From positions 428,411 to 492,410 of the forward strand of contig CAVTOI010000002.1 in the NCBI GenBank assembly GCA_963736255.1: 64,000 nt of DNA, in the 5' to 3' direction. A program made the position numbers and the translations under genes. Position 1 is the first letter of the stretch, and every line of letters begins with the position of its first letter. This DNA comes from Candidatus Aminicenantes bacterium. Lineage in GTDB: Bacteria > Acidobacteriota > Aminicenantia > Aminicenantales > Saccharicenantaceae. Positions 3,035 through 13,721 of this stretch are shown here, piece after piece. The notes below the pieces were generated by a model, which had not been told where the DNA came from, did not search any database, and saw only the letters and a program-made list of their open reading frames with translations.

Positions 3035-6000
3035 CTACCGGATCTCCTTCAAACGGATGTTGCGGAACTCGACGATCGAGCCGTGCCCCAGGAACCCGAT
3101 GTGTCCGGACTCCCGCTTGAGGCCCGGATGGTCGTTGCCGTCGATGGTGCCGCCGGCCGAGGCCGCGTCGAGGTCGGCGTCGACGATCGGTCGCGCCGTT
3201 GACGACGACGGTGACATGCCGCCCCCTGACCGTGACCTCCTCGGCATTCCACTCGCCCGGCGGATGCAGGAAGCCGCGGCGCGCCGGGACGACCCCGTAG
3301 ACCGAGCCGTGGTACTGATACGGCCGGAGTCCCCAATAGACGGGTGAGCCGTCCTCGAGGATCTGGATTTCCATGCCGGCATAGGCGGCGTCGCCTTCGA
3401 GAGGGGCGCGGACGCCGAGGCCGTTGTTGGCCGCGGGCGGCAGCTTGAACTCGAAGCGGAGCACGAAATCGGCGTACTCTTTGGCCGTGTAGAGATTGCC
3501 GCTGCCGAGCTCGGGACGGATGACGATCTTGCCGTTCTCGGCCGCGTAGCCCTTGGTGTCGCCCGTCCAGCCCTCGAGGTCGCGCCCGTTGAAGAGGGGA
3601 GTGAATCCTTCATCCGTCTCGGCCTGGGTCACGTGCGGGGCACGGCCGTGTCGCGAGGGATCTCGCGGAGGAAGATGTTCCGGAAGTAAAGGACGTTGCC
3701 GTGGGCCTGGAGCTCGATCTGCCCCGTCGGGTAGATCGGCTTGTCCCGTTCCCAGTAATTCTCGAGGACGACATTGTCGACGACGAGCTTGTCGTTGAGA
3801 TAGACGCTGACCCGCTCGCCGATCATGATGACGCGGAAGGCGTTCCACTCGCCGACGGGGCGGTCGGCCTTCTCCGAGGGGACGCTTTTCCCTTTTTGGT
3901 TGTTGTAGAGGCCGCCCGAGCCGACAGGGTTGGCGTCGGGGTCCCAGATCTGGACCTGGGGCGAGCCCCGCAGATAGAGGCCGCTGTCGCCGCCCTTTTC
4001 GATCCTCCAATCGACGAGGAGCTCGAAATCGCCGTAGTCGGCGGCGGTGCAGAGGCTCTCCCCCTTGCCGTCGAAGACGAGGACGCCGTCGATGACCTTC
4101 CAGTGGGCCCGCATCCTGTCGTCGGCCGCGGCCTGCGCCGTGGCCAGCTCCTGGGGCGTCATCTTGGCCCGGGCCGGCGGATCGGCGACAAGGCCTTTCC
4201 AGCCGTCGAAGCCGCGCCCGTCGAAGAGCGGCGCGAACCCGCCCTGCCGCAGGCGGGCCAGGATGAGCTCGTCGATGCGCGCCCGCTCGACCGGGTCGGC
4301 CGTCCGGGCCTCGACCCGTCTGAGGACGGAGTACGCTTCGTGGCCTGACAAGCCAGCGCTCCTGGCGGCGCCTGTTCTGAGGCCAGATCGAGGAGGCCGG
4401 CCGCGGCCGCCTCGCCGAGCGCGGGATTGTCCAGATACCTGGCGAGAAGGCGCAGCGTCTCGGGCTCGCGGATGGCCGCGGCGCCGGTGACGACGAGCTT
4501 CTTGTCGGCATCGTCGAAGGGCTGGGCGAGAAGGCTCCTCGAAAAGGGCCAGCTTCTTCTGCCCGGTCATGGCGGCCCGCCCGACGAGGCGGACATAGCC
4601 CTCGACGGCCAGGAGCCGGTAGCGCTTGCTCGCGGTCGTGGTCGCGATCCGCAGGAGCTCGCCGGCCGCCTGAAAGTCGGGCCATTGGGAGAGCGCGTAG
4701 ATCGCGGCGGTCTGGACCTGGGGATCGGCGCTCGAGGTCTCGCCGATGACAGCCCGATAGGCCGCGTCCCCTCCGACCTTCGGCATGACCCTGAGGATGA
4801 CGGCCTTTCGCGGCGCCGGGGCGCTCTTCAGGATCTCGACCAAAGCGGCGCCGCGGCGCGCCGGGTCGGCGTTCCTTCGGGCCGCGGCGGCTACGGCCTC
4901 CTGCAGCCTGACGATGTCGTCCCCGTCGGTGGCCGTCTCGAGCAGGGCGACAAGGCGGGGGAGGTCGGCTTCGCCGGCCGATCTTGGCCAGGGCGCCGAG
5001 CGCCGCGGCCCGGGTTGCCGGCTCCGCATCCGAGGCCAAGGCGAAAACGCGCTCGATCTCGCCCCGGGCGCCCTTTTCGCCCAGGATGTCGATGAGGACG
5101 GCCTTGCCCGGGTGGGGCGTCGAGTCGAGGAGCCGGACGGCTTCGGGGACGACCTCCTCGGCCGTCGAAGCCGAGAAGGGCCGTTTTCAGGGCCTGCGGC
5201 CTCGTCTTCGCCGGCGGCGCCGACGAGCCCGAAGAGTCGGGCGCAACGGCCTCGCCGCCGAGGCGGACCGTGGCCGGGATGGCGGCCAGGCGGACGGTCT
5301 TGTCCGGGCTCTTCGAAGGCACTCCCGAACGAAGGGCAGAGCAGCTTTGTCGCCGCGCCGGCCGAGCATCTCGACGATCGCGGCCCGCACGTCGGGGGCC
5401 GAAGCCTCGGCCTTGTCGATCCAAAGCGACGGTCGCGGCACTCGCCACCGAGCGCTGGTCGCCAAGCTCCAGGGCGGCGCCCCGGACGGCACGGACCGGG
5501 CTGTCGACGGCGCGGAGAAGGTCGGGCAACGCCTTGTCCTTGAGGACAGAGACGATGAGGGCCAGCGCTTCCGACGCGACCGGGCTCTCTTCGGGACCGC
5601 CGTGCGTCTCGAGGACCGACCGGGCCATCGCCAGGCCCTCGCTCGTCTTGCCGGACTCCGCGAGCCGGCGGGCATAGAGGAGGAAGAGGGCGGGGGCTTC
5701 GGCCCTTTCGGCTCGAGACGAGGCCACGCGGACCTTCGAGAGAACGGCGCCCGCGGCCGGGTCGCCGATGTTGGCCAGGGCGAAGCGGGCGGCGCGGCGG
5801 AGCCCCTCATCGGCGGTTTCGGCCAGGACCATGAGCTTCTTCAAGGCTTCGCGGCTGCGCATCTCGCCCAGATGCGTCGATGATCGGGATACGGGCGTTC
5901 CCGGCGGCCGTGTCGAGGGCCGCGAGGAGCGTCTTGGAGGCCTCGGGCCCGCCGATCGTCGGAGAGCCGCGACGGCCGGCCCGGCCAGGGCCTCGTCCGC

Positions 6001-6463: not shown

Positions 6464-6485
6464 GGGGAGTCTCCTCACGGCCTTT

Positions 6486-7758
6486 CTAAAGGTGCCAGGG
6501 CGCCCGCATGGGCTGGCTCGCGAGCCGGTTGGCGGCCTCGTCGCCCGGGAAGGTCTCGCTCGCCGGGTCGAACCGCAGAGGCCGGCCGAGCTGAACGGCG
6601 ATCTTGGCCAGGTTGACGATGGTGCAAGAGCGGTGGCCGTTCCTCTCGTTCAGGGCGAAGCGGCGCCGGGCGCGGACCGCTTCGGAGAAGTCGGTGACCT
6701 GCGGCTCGGGATCGGGCAGGCCGGCCAAGCGTCTCCCGGAGGTTCGGGATGTCGGATTCGAAGCCCCGGTAGAGCTTGCCCTTCGGGCCTTCGAGGAAGG
6801 GCGCCGACTTGTCGCGGTTCTCCCCGTCGAGGACGATGACGCAGCCGTCGGCGTACTTCAGCTCGATCCTCCGCCAGCTGCCGCAGGCGTCGGGGTGCTG
6901 CTGCGGGCAGTCGGCGACGATCTCCACCGGGCTCGTGCCGTCCTTGTCGAGGAGGTATTGGACCGGATCGAGGTAGTGCATGCCCATGTCCCCCAGCCCG
7001 CCGCCGTCGTAGTCCCAGTAGCCGCGGAACGTGCCGTGGACGCGGTGGGGATGGTAGGGCTTCCAGGGCGCGGGCCCGAGCCAGAAATCGTAGTCGAGCT
7101 CGGCGGGCACGGGCTCGGGCCGGGCGTAGGTCAGGCCGCTCCAATAGAACTTCCAATCGAAACCCGTCGTCGCGCTGACCGTCGCCTTGATCGGCCAGCC
7201 GAGGAGCCCGTTCTGCACGACCTTTTTGATGGGCCGGACGTCGGTCCCGAAACCGTAGAAGCGGTCCTGGAACCGGAACCAGGTGTTGATGCGGAAGATC
7301 CGTCCGGTGCGACGGACGGCGTCGACGACGGCGCGGCCCTCTGCGATCGTCCGGGTCATGGGCTTCTCGCACCAGACGTCCTTGCCGGCCTCCGCCGCCG
7401 CGATCGAGATGAGGGCGTGCCAGTGGGGCGGCGTCGCGATGTGGACGATATCGATGTCGGGCCGGGCCAGTACCTCGCGGAAGTCCGTGTATCCCGAGAC
7501 GCCCGGGCCGGCGATCTCCAGGGCCGAGGCGAGGTGGCCCCTGTCGACGTCGCAGACAGCCCGCAGGACCGAACCCGGGTAGCCGAGATGGCCCCGGCCC
7601 ATGCCGCCGACGCCGATGACGGCCTTGGTCAGGGTATCGCTCGGGGCGATGTAACCCTGGCCGCCGAGGACGCGGCGGGGCACGATGGCGAACGACGCGG
7701 CGGCCGCGGCGCCGGCGCGGATGAAGTTTCGGCGGGAGACGCTGCGGTGTTGTGACAT
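6486..7758 (-). CDS. Gfo/Idh/MocA family oxidoreductase with a Tat signal peptide. One frameshift lies near 6730.
   Basis: MSQHRSVSRRNFIRAGAAAAASFAIV is a twin-arginine signal. The Rossmann motif is AVIGVGGMGRGHL. The C-terminus, FDPASETFPGDEAANRLASQPMRAPWHL, sits in a separate frame (6486..6728). There is a GGAAGGA Shine-Dalgarno (SD) sequence before the second ATG at 7758. Confidence 0.75.
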
Positions 7759-7945
7759 GGGATGATCCTTCCGAGCGGACATTTTGGGACATTATAGTAC
7801 AATTGCGCGGAAGATTCCGGCATGACGGCAGTCTAAAAATATGCATGGCCGAGCTACGTCCGTTCCCCCAAAGCGACGTCCCCTCGCAGGGGCGCTCCCT
7901 CGGCCGAATCCCCAGTCCGACGAGGAGGTCTCCGTGCGCTCTTCC

Positions 7946-10033
7946 ATGAACATTTCCTCTCGGCCGGCGCGCTTTCTGCCGGTCCTCATCGCCCTCGGGC
8001 TCGTCCTGGCCGGTATCCCGGCCGGCGCCCAGGCCCCACCGAAATACCATGACCACGCCGGGCTCACCAAGGCCCTTCAGGCCCTGGCCGGGGGCGCCGG
8101 ATCGGCGGCCCGGCTCGAGTCCATCGGCAAGACCATCGGCGGCCGCGACCTTTGGGTGCTCGAGATCGCCAACCCCGGCGGCGTGCCGAAGGATATGCGC
8201 CCGGCCCTGCTCATCGCGGCGGGCTTCGAAGGCGACTATCTCGCCGGAAGCGAGATCGCCCTCTCCGTCGCCGAGTACCTGGTGAAGAACGCGGCCTCAT
8301 CTCCGGAGATCAAGCAGCGGCTCGATACCTCGACGGTGTATATCATCCCCCGGGTCAATCCCGACGGGGCCGAGGGCTTCTTCGCTCCCCTCAAGACGGG
8401 GGCGAGGACCAACACCAGCCCCTTCGATAACGACAACGACGGCCGCGTCGACGAGGACGGCCCCGAGGACCTCAACGGCGACGGCTTCATCACGGTCATG
8501 CGGGTCAAGGCGGCGGGCGGCGAGTATATGGTTGACCCCGATGAGCCGCGCTTGATGAAGCGGGCCGACCCGAAAAAGGGCGAGACCGGCGTCTACAAGC
8601 TCTTCACGGAAGGCACCGACAACGACGGCGACGGCTTCATCAACGAAGATCCGCCCGGGGGCATCGACATCAACAGAAACTTCGCCCACGAGTACCCTTA
8701 CTATAAGGCCGACGCGGGGCCGCACATGATCAGCGAGGCAGAATCGCGGGGCCTGATGGATTGGATCATCGCCCACCGCAACGTCGCGGCCATCCTGACG
8801 TTCGGTGAAAGCGACAACCTCATCGTCCCGCCGACGGGCGCCGGCCGGCTCGGCCCGGCCCGCGAGCTCGACCTTGTCCGCTTTGCCGAAGCTGCCGCGG
8901 CCGGAGCCCGGGCGTCGGGCTTCATCCAGACCGGAGGCGGGATGGGCCGGGGCGGACGCTTCGGCGGGGGTGGGTTCTCCTTTGAGATGATGGGCGGTCC
9001 CGGGGGCCGGCAGAGCCAGAGGCAAGCCCAAGGCGCCTCTTCCCCCCGTATGATGATGCCCGACCGCAAGCCGGCGACGACGGTGGCCGCGGCCGATTAC
9101 GATTACTTCAAGGGCGTGAGCGACAAGTACATCGAGCTGACGGGCATCCGCCAGCCTCTCTTCGTCCGCGAGCCGCAGGGCGCCTTCTTCCAGTACGGCT
9201 ATTTCCAGTTCGGCGTGCCGTCCTTTTCGACGCCCGGGTTCGGCCTGACGGCGGTCGAGCCGTCCCCGGGTCAGCGGCGCATGATGCCTCCGGGGGCGGG
9301 GGAGAGCGGCCCGCCCGGCCAAGGCGGCCAGGCCGGCCGGCAGGGTTCGGGCGCCGGCGTGACCCAGACGGTCATCGTCCAGGGTGGCGGCCAGGACGCC
9401 ATGCCGATGATGCAGGGGGGCGGCGGCGCGTTCCGCTTCGCCCAGGCCCAGGCGGGCGCTTCCGCTGAGGCCGCGCAACCGATGACGCCCGGCATCGACA
9501 AGCAGATCCTCAAGTGGATGGACGCCGAGAAGATCGACGGCTTCGTCGGCTGGGCCAAGGCGAAGCATCCGGAGCTCGGGGAGGTTGAGATCGGAGGGTT
9601 CAAGCCCTATGCGGTCACGAACCCTCCCGCGCCGAAGCTCGCCGACCTCGGGGCCTCCCATGCCAAGTTCGCCGTCCACCTCGCCTCGCTCTTCCCCCGG
9701 GTGAACGTGGCTTCCCTCGAGGCCGTCAGCCACGGCGGCGGCATCTTTCGGATCAAGGCGGAAGTCGAGAACACGGGCTTCTGGCCGACCTCTCTCGCCC
9801 AGGGGCAGACGGCCCGGTCGGTCAAGCCGACCATGGTCCAGCTCGGCGTCGATCCGGCCGCTGTCCTCTCGGGCAGCGCCAAGACGAGCTTCCTGCCGAC
9901 GCTCGCCGGCTCCGGCAGCCGGGCCAAGTACGAGTGGCTCATCAAGGGCAAGGTTGGGGAGGTCGTGGAGCTCCTCGTGCGATCGGAAAAGGGCGGAACG
10001 GCGACCGCCCGGGTGACCCTGAAGGCAAAGTGA
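7946..10033 (+). CDS. M14 carboxypeptidase-like protein, paralog 1. It is probably catalytically inactive and has a Gly/Met/Gln-rich insertion.
   Basis: Signal peptide MNISSRPARFLPVLIALGLVLAGIPAGAQA. The M14 fold is present, with DNDNDGRVDEDGPEDLNGDGF calcium-binding-like repeats. The position of the zinc-binding HxxE is occupied by EGDY. A roughly 150-aa low-complexity insert (GGGMGRGGRFGGGGFSFEMMGG...MMMP...MPMMQGGGG) is absent from paralog 2. Confidence 0.75.
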   Translation: MNISSRPARFLPVLIALGLVLAGIPAGAQAPPKYHDHAGLTKALQALAGGAGSAARLESIGKTIGGRDLWVLEIANPGGVPKDMRPALLIAAGFEGDYLAGSEIALSVAEYLVKNAASSPEIKQRLDTSTVYIIPRVNPDGAEGFFAPLKTGARTNTSPFDNDNDGRVDEDGPEDLNGDGFITVMRVKAAGGEYMVDPDEPRLMKRADPKKGETGVYKLFTEGTDNDGDGFINEDPPGGIDINRNFAHEYPYYKADAGPHMISEAESRGLMDWIIAHRNVAAILTFGESDNLIVPPTGAGRLGPARELDLVRFAEAAAAGARASGFIQTGGGMGRGGRFGGGGFSFEMMGGPGGRQSQRQAQGASSPRMMMPDRKPATTVAAADYDYFKGVSDKYIELTGIRQPLFVREPQGAFFQYGYFQFGVPSFSTPGFGLTAVEPSPGQRRMMPPGAGESGPPGQGGQAGRQGSGAGVTQTVIVQGGGQDAMPMMQGGGGAFRFAQAQAGASAEAAQPMTPGIDKQILKWMDAEKIDGFVGWAKAKHPELGEVEIGGFKPYAVTNPPAPKLADLGASHAKFAVHLASLFPRVNVASLEAVSHGGGIFRIKAEVENTGFWPTSLAQGQTARSVKPTMVQLGVDPAAVLSGSAKTSFLPTLAGSGSRAKYEWLIKGKVGEVVELLVRSEKGGTATARVTLKAK

Positions 10034-10041
10034 GAACGACC

Positions 10042-11826
10042 ATGAGAACACGCAAGATCTTCTCCTCCATCCTGGTCCTGGCCGCCGGGCTCGCCCTGAC
10101 GGCGTCCTTCGCCCCGGCCCAGAAGGCCTCCGACCCCGCGTTCAAGGTCAAGCTCGATTTCAACCGCTGGCACGACACGAACGAGCTCTATGCCGATATG
10201 GAGCGGCTCCAAGCCGCCTTTCCCAAGTTCCTCAAGCTCGAGTCGATCGGCAAGAGCCATGACGGCCGCGACCTCATGCTCATGACCGTCAATAACCCGG
10301 CCACGGGGCCCGAATCGGGCAAGGCGGGCATGTACATCGAGGCCAATGTCCACGGCAACGAGATCCAGGGCGGCGAGGTCTGCCTCTACACGATCTGGTA
10401 CCTCATGGAGAACTACGGCCGCATCGACGACGTCACCCGGCTCGTCGATGAGCGCGTCTTCTACATCATCCCCACGGTCAACCCCGACGGCCGGCAGTAT
10501 TTCATGGAAGGGCCGGGCGGCAACGCCAGGTCGGGACACGTCCCCGTTGACGACGACAACGACGGCGTCTTCGACGAGGACCCGCCCGAGGACATCAACG
10601 GCAACGGCATCATCGAGCAGATCCGCAAGCGCGTCCCCGGCGAAGGCAACTACCGCATCAGCCGGACCAACCCGAACGTCCTCGAGCCCGTTCCCTTCGG
10701 CGAAGCGGGAGACTACATCCTGCTCGGACAGGAAGGGGTCGACAACGACGGCGACGGGATGGTCAACGAGGACGGGCCCGGCAGTTACGACGGCAACCGG
10801 AACTGGCCCAGCGACTGGCAGCCGGACTACATCCAGAGCGGGGCCATGGAGTATCCCTTCCAGATCCCCGAGGCCCGCGCCGTCGCCGACTTCCTGAAGG
10901 CCCGTCCGAACATCTCTGGCGTCCAGTCCTACCACAACAACGGCGGCATGATCCTCCGCGGGCCGGGCGCCGAATCGGTGGGCGAGTACCCGATGGGCGA
11001 CGTCCGCTTTTATGACGAGCTCGGGCAGAACGGCGAGCGCATCCTGCCGTTCTACCGCTACATCGTCCTCTGGAGCGGGCTGTACACCGTGCACGGCGGC
11101 TTCATCGACTACACGAACGACGGGCTGGGCATCCCCTCGTTCTCCAACGAGCTCTGGAACGGCGACCAGTACTTCACGAGCCCCGCCCTACAGGAGCAGC
11201 AGGCCGACCCCGCGAGCCCCATCGCCCCGGCCATCGCCCGCTATTACTTCGACAAGTACCTCGAGTTCGGCGACGAGTTCGTCGAGTGGAAGGCCTACGA
11301 TCATCCCCAGTTCGGTCCGGTCGAGATGGGCGGCATCTGGAAGAAATACCAGGGACGGGTCCCGCCGCGGTTCATGAACGAGGAGCTGTGCCACCGGAAC
11401 ATGGCCTTTTCCCTCTACCAGGCCGGCGAGATGCCTCTCATCAGCATCGGCGAGACCTCGGTCGAGAAGCTCGGCGGGGACGTCTACCGGGTCTTCGTCG
11501 ACATCACCAACCCCAAGGTCGCGCCGACGATCATGGCCCGGGCGGCCCAGAATTGCACCGTCCGGCCCGACCTCCTTCTCGTCGAGGGAAAGGGCGTCGA
11601 GGTCATCGCGGCCAGCTTTGTCGATAACAAGGTTGTGTTCAAGACGAATCCGTCGGTGACGCCGCTCGTCGACCAGAAGGACTTGAAGCGCATCGTCATC
11701 CGCAACGGGCACCCGGGCAAGACGACCCGGACGGCGGTCCTCCTGGTCAAGGGCTCCGGCACCGCGACGGTGACCTACGACAGCGTCAAAGGCGGAAAAG
11801 CGAGCCGGGCGATCACGCTCAAATAG
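10042..11826 (+). CDS. M14 family zinc carboxypeptidase, paralog 2, with catalytic residues intact.
   Basis: Signal peptide [27 protein letters not shown]. The HGNE zinc motif ([13 protein letters not shown]) is present, as is SYHNNGG. The [20 protein letters not shown] repeats are also present. It lies 8 bp downstream of paralog 1. Confidence 0.8.
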
Positions 11827-11830
11827 GGCG

Positions 11831-13721
11831 TCAGAACAGTCCGGTGACCCTTCCCGTTTCGAGATCGATGTCGACGTCGTAATAGACGGGCCGCGTGGGC
11901 AGGCCGGGCATTGTCCGCATGTCGCCGCAGAGCGGATACAGGAACCCGGCGCCGACGCTGGCCCGGATATCGCGGACGGGGATCTTGAAGCCCTTGGGGA
12001 CCCCCTTCAGCGCCGGATCGTGGCTCAGGCTGAGGTGGGTCTTGGCCATGCAGATGGGCAGCTTGTCGAAGCCGAGACGGGTGTAGAGGGCCACCTTGGC
12101 CTCCGCTTCCGGCGTGTATTCGACGCCGTCGGCCCCGTAGATCTGGGTGGCGATCGTCTCGATCTTCTTCTTGATGTCCCACTCGAGCGGGTAGAGGAAC
12201 CTGAAATCGGCCGGCTTCTGGCACGCGGCGATAACGGCCTTGGCCAGGGCGACGGCCCCGGCCCCGCCTTCGGCCCAGTGGTCGGCCATGACGGCGTCCT
12301 CGGCGCCGGCCCCGACGGCGGCCTTGCGGACCAGCTCGATCTCGGCGTCGGTGTCGGCGGCGAAGCGGTTGACGGCGACGACGACGGGCACGCCGAAACG
12401 GAGGGCGTTCCTGATGTGGGCGACCATGTTCGGCAGGCCCTTCTCGAGCAGGGCCAGGTTCTCGTCGGTGTATTCGGGGGCCAGGGGCTTGCCGGCCACG
12501 ACCTTGGGCCCTCCCCCGTGCATCTTCAGGGCCCGGATCGTGGCCACGATGACGACGCAGCTCGGGACGAGGCCGCTCGCCCGGCACTTGATGTTCATGA
12601 ACTTTTCCATGCCGCAGTCGGCCCCGAAGCCCGACTCCGTGACCACGAAGCCGTCCTTGCCGACGAGGCGGAGGGCGATCTGGTCGGCGATGATCGAGGA
12701 GTTGCCGTGGGCGATGTTGGCGAACGGGCCGGCGTGAACGATGGCCGGCGTGTTCTCGACCGTCTGCATGAGGTTGGGCATGATGGCGTCCTTCATCAGG
12801 ACGGTCAGGGCGCCGGCGACGCCGAGGTCGTCGGCGGTGACGGCCTCGCCCGCCCGGCTCGTGCCGATGACGATCCGGCCGAGGCGCTCGCGCATGTCGG
12901 CCAGGCCCGTCGTCAGGGCCAGGATGGCCATGATCTCCGAGGCGACCGAGATGTCGAACCCCGTACGGCGGGTCATGCCCTTCTCTTCCGGTCCGAGGCC
13001 GATCTCGACGCACGCGGAGGAAGCGGTCGCTGATGTCGAGGACACGGTTCCAGGTGATGCTGGCCGGGTCGATGTCGAGGCGGAACATCCGGCGCTTTTC
13101 TTCCGCGGTCAGGTCGGCGGGGTCGGTCTTGTCGATGCCGAGCTTCTTGAGGCGGCGGAGCATGATCGGCGAGAAGCGGCGCTCGCCCTTCTTGTTGGCC
13201 GGGCAGAAGGCGTTGAAGAGCTTCTCGTCGTCCTGGGTCGACTCGTGGAGGATGCGCACGTCGATGGCCGCGGCAAGAAGGTCGTGGGAGGCCGTGACGG
13301 CGTGGATGTCGCCGGTCAGGTGGAGGTTGAAGTCCTCCATGGGCACGACCTGGGAATAGCCGCCGCCGGCCGCCCCGCCCTTGATCCCGAAGGTCGGGCC
13401 CATGCTGGGCTGGCGGACGACGGTCATGACCTTCCGGCCGAGGTGGGCGCCGAGTGCCTGGCTCAGGCCGATGGTCGTCGTCGTCTTGCCTTCGCCGAGC
13501 GGAGTCGGGGTGATGGCCGTGACGTCCACGTAGTGGCCCAGGGGACGGTCCTTGAGCCGGTCGAGGACGTCGAGGTGGATCTTGGCTTTGAACTTGCCGT
13601 AGAGGTCGAGGTCGTCCTCGCCGAGACCGAGTCCGGCCGCAACCTTGATGACGGGCAGAAGCTCGGCGGCTTGGGCGATGTCGATGTCGCTCGGAACGGG
13701 TTTGACGGGCTTGACGGACAT
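11831..13721 (-). CDS. fhs: Formate--tetrahydrofolate ligase, with a frameshift near 13035.
   Basis: The N-terminus [17 protein letters not shown]...[12 protein letters not shown] is in ORF 11775..13721. The C-terminus [30 protein letters not shown]...[19 protein letters not shown] is in ORF 11831..13045. Confidence 0.8.

Follow-up and report, generated by a model that had tools for sequence, protein, structure and literature searches.

Organization of the locus

The 64,000-nucleotide (nt) stretch analysed here (the window; positions 428,411 to 492,410 of contig CAVTOI010000002.1, assembly GCA_963736255.1, from a Candidatus Aminicenantes bacterium) contains two adjacent long open reading frames (ORFs) on the plus strand, which encode two M14-family carboxypeptidase paralogs. 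Gene A (7946-10033) encodes a protein of 695 residues and gene B (10042-11826) a protein of 594 residues; the pair lies between two other genes, one for a Gfo/Idh/MocA oxidoreductase (divergent) and one for a formate-tetrahydrofolate ligase (convergent). An earlier note on this DNA had read the two genes as tandem M14 paralogs, both with signal peptides and DxDxDG repeats, and this description proved accurate. Both proteins match PF00246 above the cut-off of 21.6 bits (A, 91.2 bits, E = 1.2e-25; B, 134.5 bits, E = 7.5e-39), and BLASTP aligned them with 30% identity over the catalytic domain (E = 9e-47) and, in a second high-scoring segment pair, with 26% identity over the C-terminal regions (E = 3e-13). 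In the PDB, the two proteins match carboxypeptidases M, D, N, T and A by sequence. Neither had a significant match in NCBIfam, and no further M14 copy is present in the window.

The 8-nt gap between the two genes implies that they are co-transcribed. Scans for regulatory sites, none of which rose above chance, placed the sole promoter-like site near the pair upstream of A (7776-7803), and returned no promoter-like or credible terminator-like site at the A-B junction. Two ORFs antisense to the pair (8297-10051 and 9607-11094) were rejected as genes; they have no Pfam matches, and are typical of DNA with 65-70% GC content. Visual inspection of the sequences revealed signal-peptide-like N-termini on both proteins. 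Each protein also contains two acidic motifs of the D-x-D-x-D-G type, which are among the best-conserved columns of the A/B alignment, and which may bind calcium.

The catalytic sites of the two proteins

Protein B retains every residue expected of an active M14 enzyme. The three zinc ligands are present, with H104 and E107 (of the HGNE motif) and H298 (of the SYH motif) at the positions of H69, E72 and H196, as are E370 (SNELW; E270), R163 (R127), N252-R253 (NRNW; N144/R145) and Y348 (Y248). The resulting signature, HERNRHYE, comprises all eight canonical catalytic and substrate-binding residues. The catalytic domain begins right after the signal peptide, with no pro-segment. B is 82-92% identical to its counterparts in the syntenic loci of metagenome-assembled genomes (MAGs), with a ratio of nonsynonymous to synonymous substitution rates (dN/dS) of 0.14-0.26, and looks like a competent exported zinc carboxypeptidase.

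In A, the same site has been dismantled. The HxxE motif is replaced by EGDY (E95 for H69 and Y98 for E72), the third ligand, H196, by Gly287 within the sequence GESDN, and the general base, E270, by Pro430 (FSTPGF, compared with FSNELW in B), while the position of Y248 holds no conserved residue. The substrate-binding residues fared differently, as the R127 equivalent (R154) and the N144/R145 equivalents (N243-R244, in the sequence NRNF) are kept. In active M14 enzymes, N144 and R145 bind the C-terminal carboxylate of the substrate. These equivalences were established by pairwise alignment of A with B and by phmmer alignment to carboxypeptidases M and D, which placed 'agfegdylag' of A on 'anmhgdetvg'. 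A profile built from 58 diverse A-type sequences agreed when aligned to carboxypeptidase T, with 'e..h' falling on H69/E72, 'g' on H204 and 'p' on E277.

The earlier note had found HGNE and SYH in B and, by hand alignment, EGDY and Gly at the ligand positions of A, and had called A a pseudo-peptidase; the profile alignment upholds the substitutions, and the designation holds by all sequence criteria. The possibility that the zinc site is rebuilt elsewhere in A was rejected, as no compensating invariant His or Glu was found across the 58 diverse members. The sole near-invariant His of the A family, H541, belongs to an HP.LG.VEIGG motif that is common to B. Among 120 full-length A orthologs (68-91% identity), E95 is present in 119 and G287 in all 120, whereas the position of E72 varies (His in 94, Asp in 9, Tyr in 5, Gln in 5), the Tyr of the window being in the minority. 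The dN/dS of A (0.20-0.33) indicates purifying selection, and excludes a decaying pseudogene; A evolves somewhat faster than B. Because A lacks the Tyr248 equivalent and the catalytic Glu as well as every zinc ligand, it is, to judge from its residues, catalytically dead, and the combination of lost essential residues, purifying selection and conservation would place it among the pseudoenzymes.

The former zinc site of A has a conserved character of its own. GESDN occupies the place at which B has H-N-N-G-G, and the triplet D290-N291-L292 is invariant among relatives of 46-62% identity. Residues 287-291, together with E95 and D97, form a conserved acidic cluster at this site.

Distribution and age of the A family

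To say that A 'has lost' its ligands implies that the loss is recent, and this part of the earlier reading did not hold, as the dead form is old and forms a large family that extends over several phyla. When A was scored against 1.84 billion cluster representatives, 4532 matches were obtained, 864 of them at E <= 1e-30. Residues were counted in the best 150 of the 4532. Nearly all of these 150 are of the dead type. E or D occupies position 69 in 115 of them, and G or S occupies position 196 in 127. At position 72, His is the most frequent residue (60/150), the others being D, R, Q, Y, E and L, and P and R are the commonest residues at position 270. The R145 equivalent is kept in 117, and the N144 position holds N in 95 and D in 34. 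The dead-type pattern, with [E/D]xx[H/...], G/S and P/R at the positions concerned, is common to at least ~140 clusters at 50% identity.

The closest relatives of A were found in Candidatus Aminicenantes MAGs, and the profile search recovered further members from Aminicenantes, Vicinamibacterales, Gemmatimonadales, Planctomycetota/Phycisphaerae and a Bacteroidales MAG. In their sources, the A-type proteins are labeled 'M14 family metallopeptidase', 'zinc carboxypeptidase', 'MpaA' or 'hypothetical protein'. In six aligned pairs (the window and five divergent loci), the A proteins are 37-57% and the B proteins 43-70% identical to the corresponding window protein, whereas A and B of the same locus are 28-33% identical. 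The duplication therefore predates the spread of the pair. The ligand loss is ancient and extends across the family, and does not reflect recent decay in a single copy.

Conserved pairing and natural fusions

The dead and the active paralog are found together wherever the downstream sequence can be read. In eight Aminicenantes-like MAG loci, B follows A wherever downstream sequence exists, and the flanking genes are the same in the seven whose contigs reach far enough. Nine divergent A-type proteins on contigs were looked up, and eight of these were informative (from Vicinamibacterales, Gemmatimonadales, a Bacteroidales MAG, Planctomycetota, a 2.4-Mb contig, Phycisphaerae, Saccharicenans and one member not recognized by Pfam). 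In each of the eight, the next gene downstream is an M14 gene on the same strand, although the flanking genes are unrelated. The spacing between A and B in relatives ranges from a 4-nt overlap (two pairs) to 28 nt. The five downstream partners that were aligned all carry HERNRHYE, whereas the A copies of the same loci and of the window lack H69, E72, H196 and E270. A metagenome scan identified 80 loci with an A-type gene, and B directly follows A in 66 of the 66 informative ones; the other 14, in which the contig ends within A or <200 nt past it, were set aside.

In some Phycisphaerae the two genes are joined. The protein P0162 (1235 residues; Phycisphaeraceae, 495-kb contig) matches A in the first half of its sequence and B in the second, the identity to B being 43%. 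Five further fusions, from independent assemblies, are 59-72% identical to P0162, giving six in total with lengths of 1220-1265 residues, on contigs of up to 495 kb. The four key positions read D/R/G/T in the N-terminal half of every fusion, the catalytic set of the C-terminal half is complete, and a Pro/Ala-rich linker occupies the place of the signal peptide of B. The fusions are evidence, of the classical Rosetta-stone kind, that the two modules act close to each other. The dead and active paralogs are thus conserved in their co-occurrence, gene order and fusion, and the suggestion of the earlier note that A may be a partner of the active paralog gains strong comparative support from the invariant A-then-B adjacency and the natural fusions.

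Some of the loci have features of their own. In one locus (L017 4001-7491), a very divergent A-type protein of 718 residues, with no Pfam match, abuts a short M14 gene of 444 codons, and A seems to remain paired even when its M14 identity can no longer be recognized. Other peptidase genes were often seen beside the pairs, including M28 genes in the Gemmatimonadales contig (L010 5643-6646) and in L017 (7493-8413), and PmbA/TldD in Saccharicenans (L016 7894-9908), which hints at a role in peptide scavenging.

Glycine-rich inserts of A

The earlier note had described a low-complexity insert of roughly 150 residues in A, rich in Gly, Met and Gln. Its composition was confirmed, but there are two inserts, at residues 316-383 and 433-513, on either side of a conserved core segment. 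Insert 1 contains 25% Gly and 9% Met, and insert 2 contains 25% Gly, 7% Met and 14% Gln. Insert 1 lies between the would-be H196 strand and the would-be Y248 segment, while insert 2 begins three residues past the E270 position; no part of A is better conserved than the 49-residue core segment that separates them (majority-residue frequency 0.94). Alignment to known M14 enzymes suggests that the inserts project from the two sides of the former active-site cleft. In 121 sequences of the Aminicenantes clade, insert 1 is 66-75 residues long, with a majority-residue frequency of 0.79 and a dN/dS of 0.19-0.33, which indicates purifying selection. Insert 2 is more variable and less constrained, with lengths of 31-112 residues in orthologs, a majority-residue frequency of 0.59 and a dN/dS of 0.23-1.3.

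An assembly artefact was ruled out, as the inserts are in frame in orthologs of 68-91% identity, and the DNA contains no real tandem repeats. Both inserts are predicted to be disordered, as the earlier note had supposed: in an AlphaFold2 model of A, made from a 62-sequence alignment and poor overall, the predicted local distance difference test score (pLDDT) was <50 at residues 288-383 and 401-534. The model was confident only in the N-terminal core and the C-terminal sandwich (pLDDT 80-93, approximately residues 570-695). A Foldseek search of the PDB with this low-confidence model returned generic M14 matches throughout, with high root-mean-square deviations.

Inserts are found at the same two sites in other phyla, where they are mainly Gly-rich. 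The core of insert 1 (GFGGRGGG, FGFGFRGFRGGG, GFGRGMRFMGGGG), which resembles FG/RGG sequences, recurs in Acidobacteriota, Gemmatimonadota and the Bacteroidales MAG. What marks the A family as a whole is Gly-rich loops with an FG/RGG core, the Met-richness being clade-specific.

Table 1. Positions of the features of the A-B locus in the window
Feature	Position	Strand	Basis or remarks
Alternative GTG start of A	7934	+	5 nt behind GAGGAGG Shine-Dalgarno sequence
Gene A, putative exported M14-fold pseudo-carboxypeptidase, 695 residues	7946-10033	+	ORF, PF00246, orthologs, dN/dS
Signal-peptide-like N-terminus of A, MNISSRPARFLPVLIALGLVLAGIPAGAQ	7946-8032	+	basic n-region, hydrophobic core, A-x-A-type end, no lipobox Cys
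EGDY of A in place of HxxE	8228-8239	+	pairwise, phmmer and profile alignments
Acidic, calcium-binding-like insert of A, common to B	8426-8662	+	invariant D/N/G/E columns of A and B
DxDxDG-type motif of A, DNDNDGRVDEDGPEDLNGDG	8426-8485	+	alignment; before beta-hairpin segment
DxDxDG-type motif of A, DNDGDGFINEDPPGG	8618-8662	+	alignment; after beta-hairpin segment
NRNF of A (N144/R145 equivalents)	8672-8683	+	alignment
GESDN of A, Gly287 in place of third zinc ligand, then conserved D-N-L	8804-8818	+	alignment, profile
Insert 1 of A, Gly/Met/Arg-rich loop with FG/RGG core	8891-9094	+	ortholog alignment, pLDDT, dN/dS
Pro430 of A at the general base position	9233-9235	+	alignment, profile
Insert 2 of A, Gly/Gln/Met/Pro/Ala-rich loop	9242-9484	+	ortholog alignment, pLDDT, dN/dS
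C-terminal region of A: W..HP.LG.VEIGG hairpin, helix, beta-sandwich domain	9485-10030	+	homologous to C-terminal region of B
Intergenic gap, A stop (TGA) to B start (ATG), 8 nt	10034-10041	+	co-transcription implied
Gene B, putative exported M14 carboxypeptidase, 594 residues	10042-11826	+	PF00246, intact catalytic set
HGNE of B	10351-10362	+	alignment
R163 of B	10528-10530	+	alignment
NR of B	10795-10800	+	alignment
H298 of B	10933-10935	+	alignment
Y348 of B	11083-11085	+	alignment
E370 of B	11149-11151	+	alignment

A possible two-component carboxypeptidase

We regard it as fairly probable that A is a functional partner or subunit of carboxypeptidase B. The two genes would then constitute a conserved module for a two-component exported carboxypeptidase, in which B would be the zinc-dependent catalytic subunit and A an ancient paralog of the same fold and domain layout that does not hydrolyze. 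A would bind B, non-covalently in the organism of the window and covalently in the Phycisphaerae fusions, and might serve as a non-catalytic half for substrate recognition, gating or regulation. The Gly-rich loops of A could capture or admit unfolded peptide chains, in a manner analogous to that of the loop, likewise Gly-rich, in the inactive alpha subunit of mitochondrial processing peptidase (MPP), an M16 enzyme. Substrate capture, gating or regulation is favored because of the positions of the inserts, the FG/RGG core and the retention of R127, N144 and R145 in the clade of the window; a capture or gating role of the loops in particular is a tentative proposal, and rather doubtful as it stands. 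In its strongest form, the proposal describes an obligate two-lobed carboxypeptidase, in which the dead lobe faces the live one and encloses the active site, with its FG/RGG loops forming the substrate-capturing gate; such an arrangement is conceivable, if on the whole improbable. What the sequences show is the catalytic death of A, the intact site of B, purifying selection on A, the strict co-occurrence and order of the genes, and their fusion; a physical A-B complex in this organism, the role of the loops, export of the two proteins and calcium binding are inferred.

A number of observations weigh against this interpretation. Neighboring or fused genes would also be consistent with two proteins that act in sequence, or of which one regulates the other in trans, with no stable complex between them. 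The structure models are poor, with a mean pLDDT of 52 for A and of 34 for B (modeled from a single sequence), and the placement of the inserts at the cleft rim rests on alignment to known M14 structures. The substrate-binding residues are less constant than they are in the window clade: the R127 equivalent is kept in only 35 of the 150 A-family representatives, and the R145 equivalent is L or M in five of the six fusions. One Planctomycetota A protein, which is paired with B, lacks insert 1, and its other insert is rich in Lys, Glu and Asp. When insert 1 was compared with the PDB, MPP alpha included, only chance matches were returned (E >= 0.38), and because no similarity to any PDB sequence was detectable, the comparison with MPP is one of analogy only. 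Finally, B-like enzymes occur in other settings. P0384 (707 residues) is an active-type enzyme with the same acidic motifs and an N-terminal extension of ~145 residues, and stands alone; it has no A-type neighbor in its locus (L018 4001-8337), where its gene directly adjoins a CHASE2-guanylate/adenylate cyclase gene. P0411 (1272 residues, found in 4 contigs) carries a B-like active M14 module in its C-terminal half, fused to an M28-type module. The M14 half has the signature HERNRH.. and four DxDGDG-type motifs, and the N-terminal half matches M28, PA, M20 and transferrin-receptor-like dimerization domains. Catalysis of this kind therefore does not intrinsically need A, and because B-like enzymes also exist alone or fused to an M28-like module, A is more likely to be a modulator than a prerequisite for the chemistry.

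Other roles for A were also weighed. One possibility is that A is a trans-acting inhibitor or a folding chaperone for B, in effect a giant separate pro-domain, which would hold exported B in a latent state until A is degraded or released, its RGG/Met-rich loop perhaps plugging the active site of B. This would agree with the lack of a pro-segment in B, with the position of A, which is always first in gene order and N-terminal in the fusions, and with the flexible loops, of which insert 1 has conserved Arg, Gly and Phe positions. However, the M14B-type enzymes, which are the closest solved relatives, need no pro-domain, a well-conserved protein of 600-700 residues would be a costly inhibitor, the Planctomycetota A protein without insert 1 is still paired with B, and no cleavage-site signature was identified; such a role is therefore considered unlikely. 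We attach a similarly low probability to A being an independent non-catalytic binding protein, that would recognize peptide C-termini, cell-envelope polymers or another ligand in the same pathway as B without forming a complex. M14 pseudoenzymes such as AEBP1, CPXM1 and CPXM2 do act as binding proteins and not as subunits of enzymes (PMC11266112), the N144/R145 equivalents are kept in most A members, and operon linkage alone is no proof of contact. Nevertheless, the covalent A-B fusions, which form six independent clusters, speak for proximity of the two modules, and adjacency in 66 of 66 loci, with gaps that are tiny or overlapping, suggests stoichiometric co-production.

Two further proposals concern metals, and both are considered highly improbable. 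In one, A would still be an enzyme with a rearranged site, in which [E/D]xxH and G-E-S-D-N serve a different metal or reaction. The frequency of E or D at position 69, the preference for His at position 72 and the invariance of D-N-L after G287 are consistent with this idea, but position 72 is variable, and is Tyr in the window, Gly or Ser replaces the third ligand and Pro or Arg the general base, and the 58 aligned members offer no invariant His or Glu in compensation. In the other, which follows the suggestion of the earlier note that the Met-rich insert binds Cu(I), A would be a periplasmic metal-binding or metal-sensing protein built on a peptidase scaffold, with inserts that bind Cu(I) or another soft metal. 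The MMMP and MPMMQ strings are similar to Met-rich motifs found in proteins that handle copper. In the 121 sequences of the Aminicenantes clade, Met accounts for 7.7% of residues in the inserts and 1.6% elsewhere, and M348, M371 and M446 are conserved at 98%, 96% and 91%, respectively. Against this, the equivalent inserts of other phyla contain 0-6 Met while the A-B pairing stays invariant, the inserts of the clade have almost no His (0.1%) and no Cys, and no copper-homeostasis genes were seen beside any of the A-B loci examined. Cu(I) binding is thus unsupported as a property of the family, and would at best be a clade-specific addition.

Comparison with known systems

The M14 examples in a review of metallopeptidase pseudoenzymes are all eukaryotic (AEBP1/ACLP, CPXM1, CPXM2, domain III of CPD and yeast Ecm14), and their molecular roles in animals and yeast are poorly understood (PMC11266112). 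A resembles these pseudo-carboxypeptidases, in that an M14 fold with altered key residues has been kept by selection, and a binding role is thought likely (PMC11266112). The eukaryotic proteins, however, have lost only some of the residues, most of them keeping H69 and several of them E72 and H196 (PMC11266112), whereas A has lost all three zinc ligands and E270. None of the eukaryotic M14 pseudoenzymes is described in the review as being encoded or fused with an active paralog as its obligate partner (PMC11266112). A is also bacterial, and has acidic DxDxDG-type inserts and two Gly-rich loops instead of discoidin or pro-domains. No description of a bacterial M14 pair of dead and active members was found in the literature searched, of which the coverage was partial, so that this is weak evidence of novelty.

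The closest solved relatives by sequence are carboxypeptidase T and the M14B carboxypeptidases D, M and N, whose full catalytic set is present in B. Like the M14B enzymes, A and B have a C-terminal beta-sandwich after the catalytic domain. The matches to solved carboxypeptidases cover mainly the first ~115 residues, as A and B carry an acidic insert of ~100 residues before the NRN motif; neither this insert nor the Gly-rich loops is found in any solved structure.

Pairs of an active and a paralogous inactive subunit are known from the M16 peptidases. MPP alpha/beta and the bacterial M16B heterodimers would share this design with a putative A-B complex, and prokaryotic two-gene M16 operons have been noted (PMC11266112). 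In MPP, the inactive subunit's glycine-rich loop recognizes the substrate (PMC2597178). The M16 enzymes differ in having an unrelated fold and clan, an inverted HxxEH motif and endopeptidase activity, and the likeness is one of design, with no homology.

Two paralogs of the M23B metallopeptidase family are reported to form the Csd1-Csd2 heterodimer of Helicobacter pylori (PMC5053510). Csd1-Csd2 differs from A-B in its family, in its substrate, the cross-links of peptidoglycan, and in having no low-complexity loops. The Csd1 and Csd2 genes are adjacent, and one partner is catalytically impaired. We know of no Csd1-Csd2 fusions.

As far as could be found, no pair of enzyme and pseudoenzyme like A and B has been described before in this family and domain of life. 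A represents a large family of bacterial M14 proteins that are fully dead, and genome context identifies their partner as an active paralog, always adjacent and sometimes fused. The pair is widespread in environmental phyla and experimentally tractable, and two recombinant proteins, or a single natural fusion, suffice for a direct test of the role of a dead carboxypeptidase. For annotation, the source labels mean that inventories of the peptidases of Acidobacteriota, Gemmatimonadota and Planctomycetota from sediment and soil contain one surplus active carboxypeptidase for each pair. If the Gly-rich loops handle substrate, they would provide a second, independent case of the M16 processing-peptidase design. 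Should the two-lobed arrangement prove true, the pair would be an M14 counterpart of the M16 'cryptase' design, independently arisen and spread through Acidobacteriota, Gemmatimonadota, Planctomycetota and others. A would then be the first M14 pseudoenzyme from bacteria to have a defined role, and the pair the first M14 enzyme with specificity set by a dead paralogous subunit.

Neighboring genes

An ORF on the minus strand (3629-5029), located upstream of the oxidoreductase gene and unrelated to the A-B pair, encodes a C-terminal 3-keto-disaccharide hydrolase domain (DUF1080-type, E = 1.4e-41) behind an Ala/Arg-rich N-terminal region. The Gfo/Idh/MocA oxidoreductase gene (6475-7782, minus strand) was found to be frameshifted, with the break near 6723-6728. 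The 435-residue product fits its family only to approximately residue 352, where the Pfam C2 domain is cut at position 175 of 254, and is Arg/Pro-rich thereafter, while the genuine C-terminus lies in another frame (ORF 6486-6728). The same break in frame appears on comparison of the window protein with syntenic MAG loci, which places the indel in the window. The formate-tetrahydrofolate ligase gene, on the minus strand, is likewise split by a frameshift (near 13010-13045), with the N-terminal part in ORF 11775-13721 and the C-terminal part (Pfam FTHFS 177-556) in ORF 11831-13045. With two frameshifts in 7 kb, indel errors of the long-read-assembly type seem more likely than real pseudogenes. 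A and B themselves align end to end with their orthologs.

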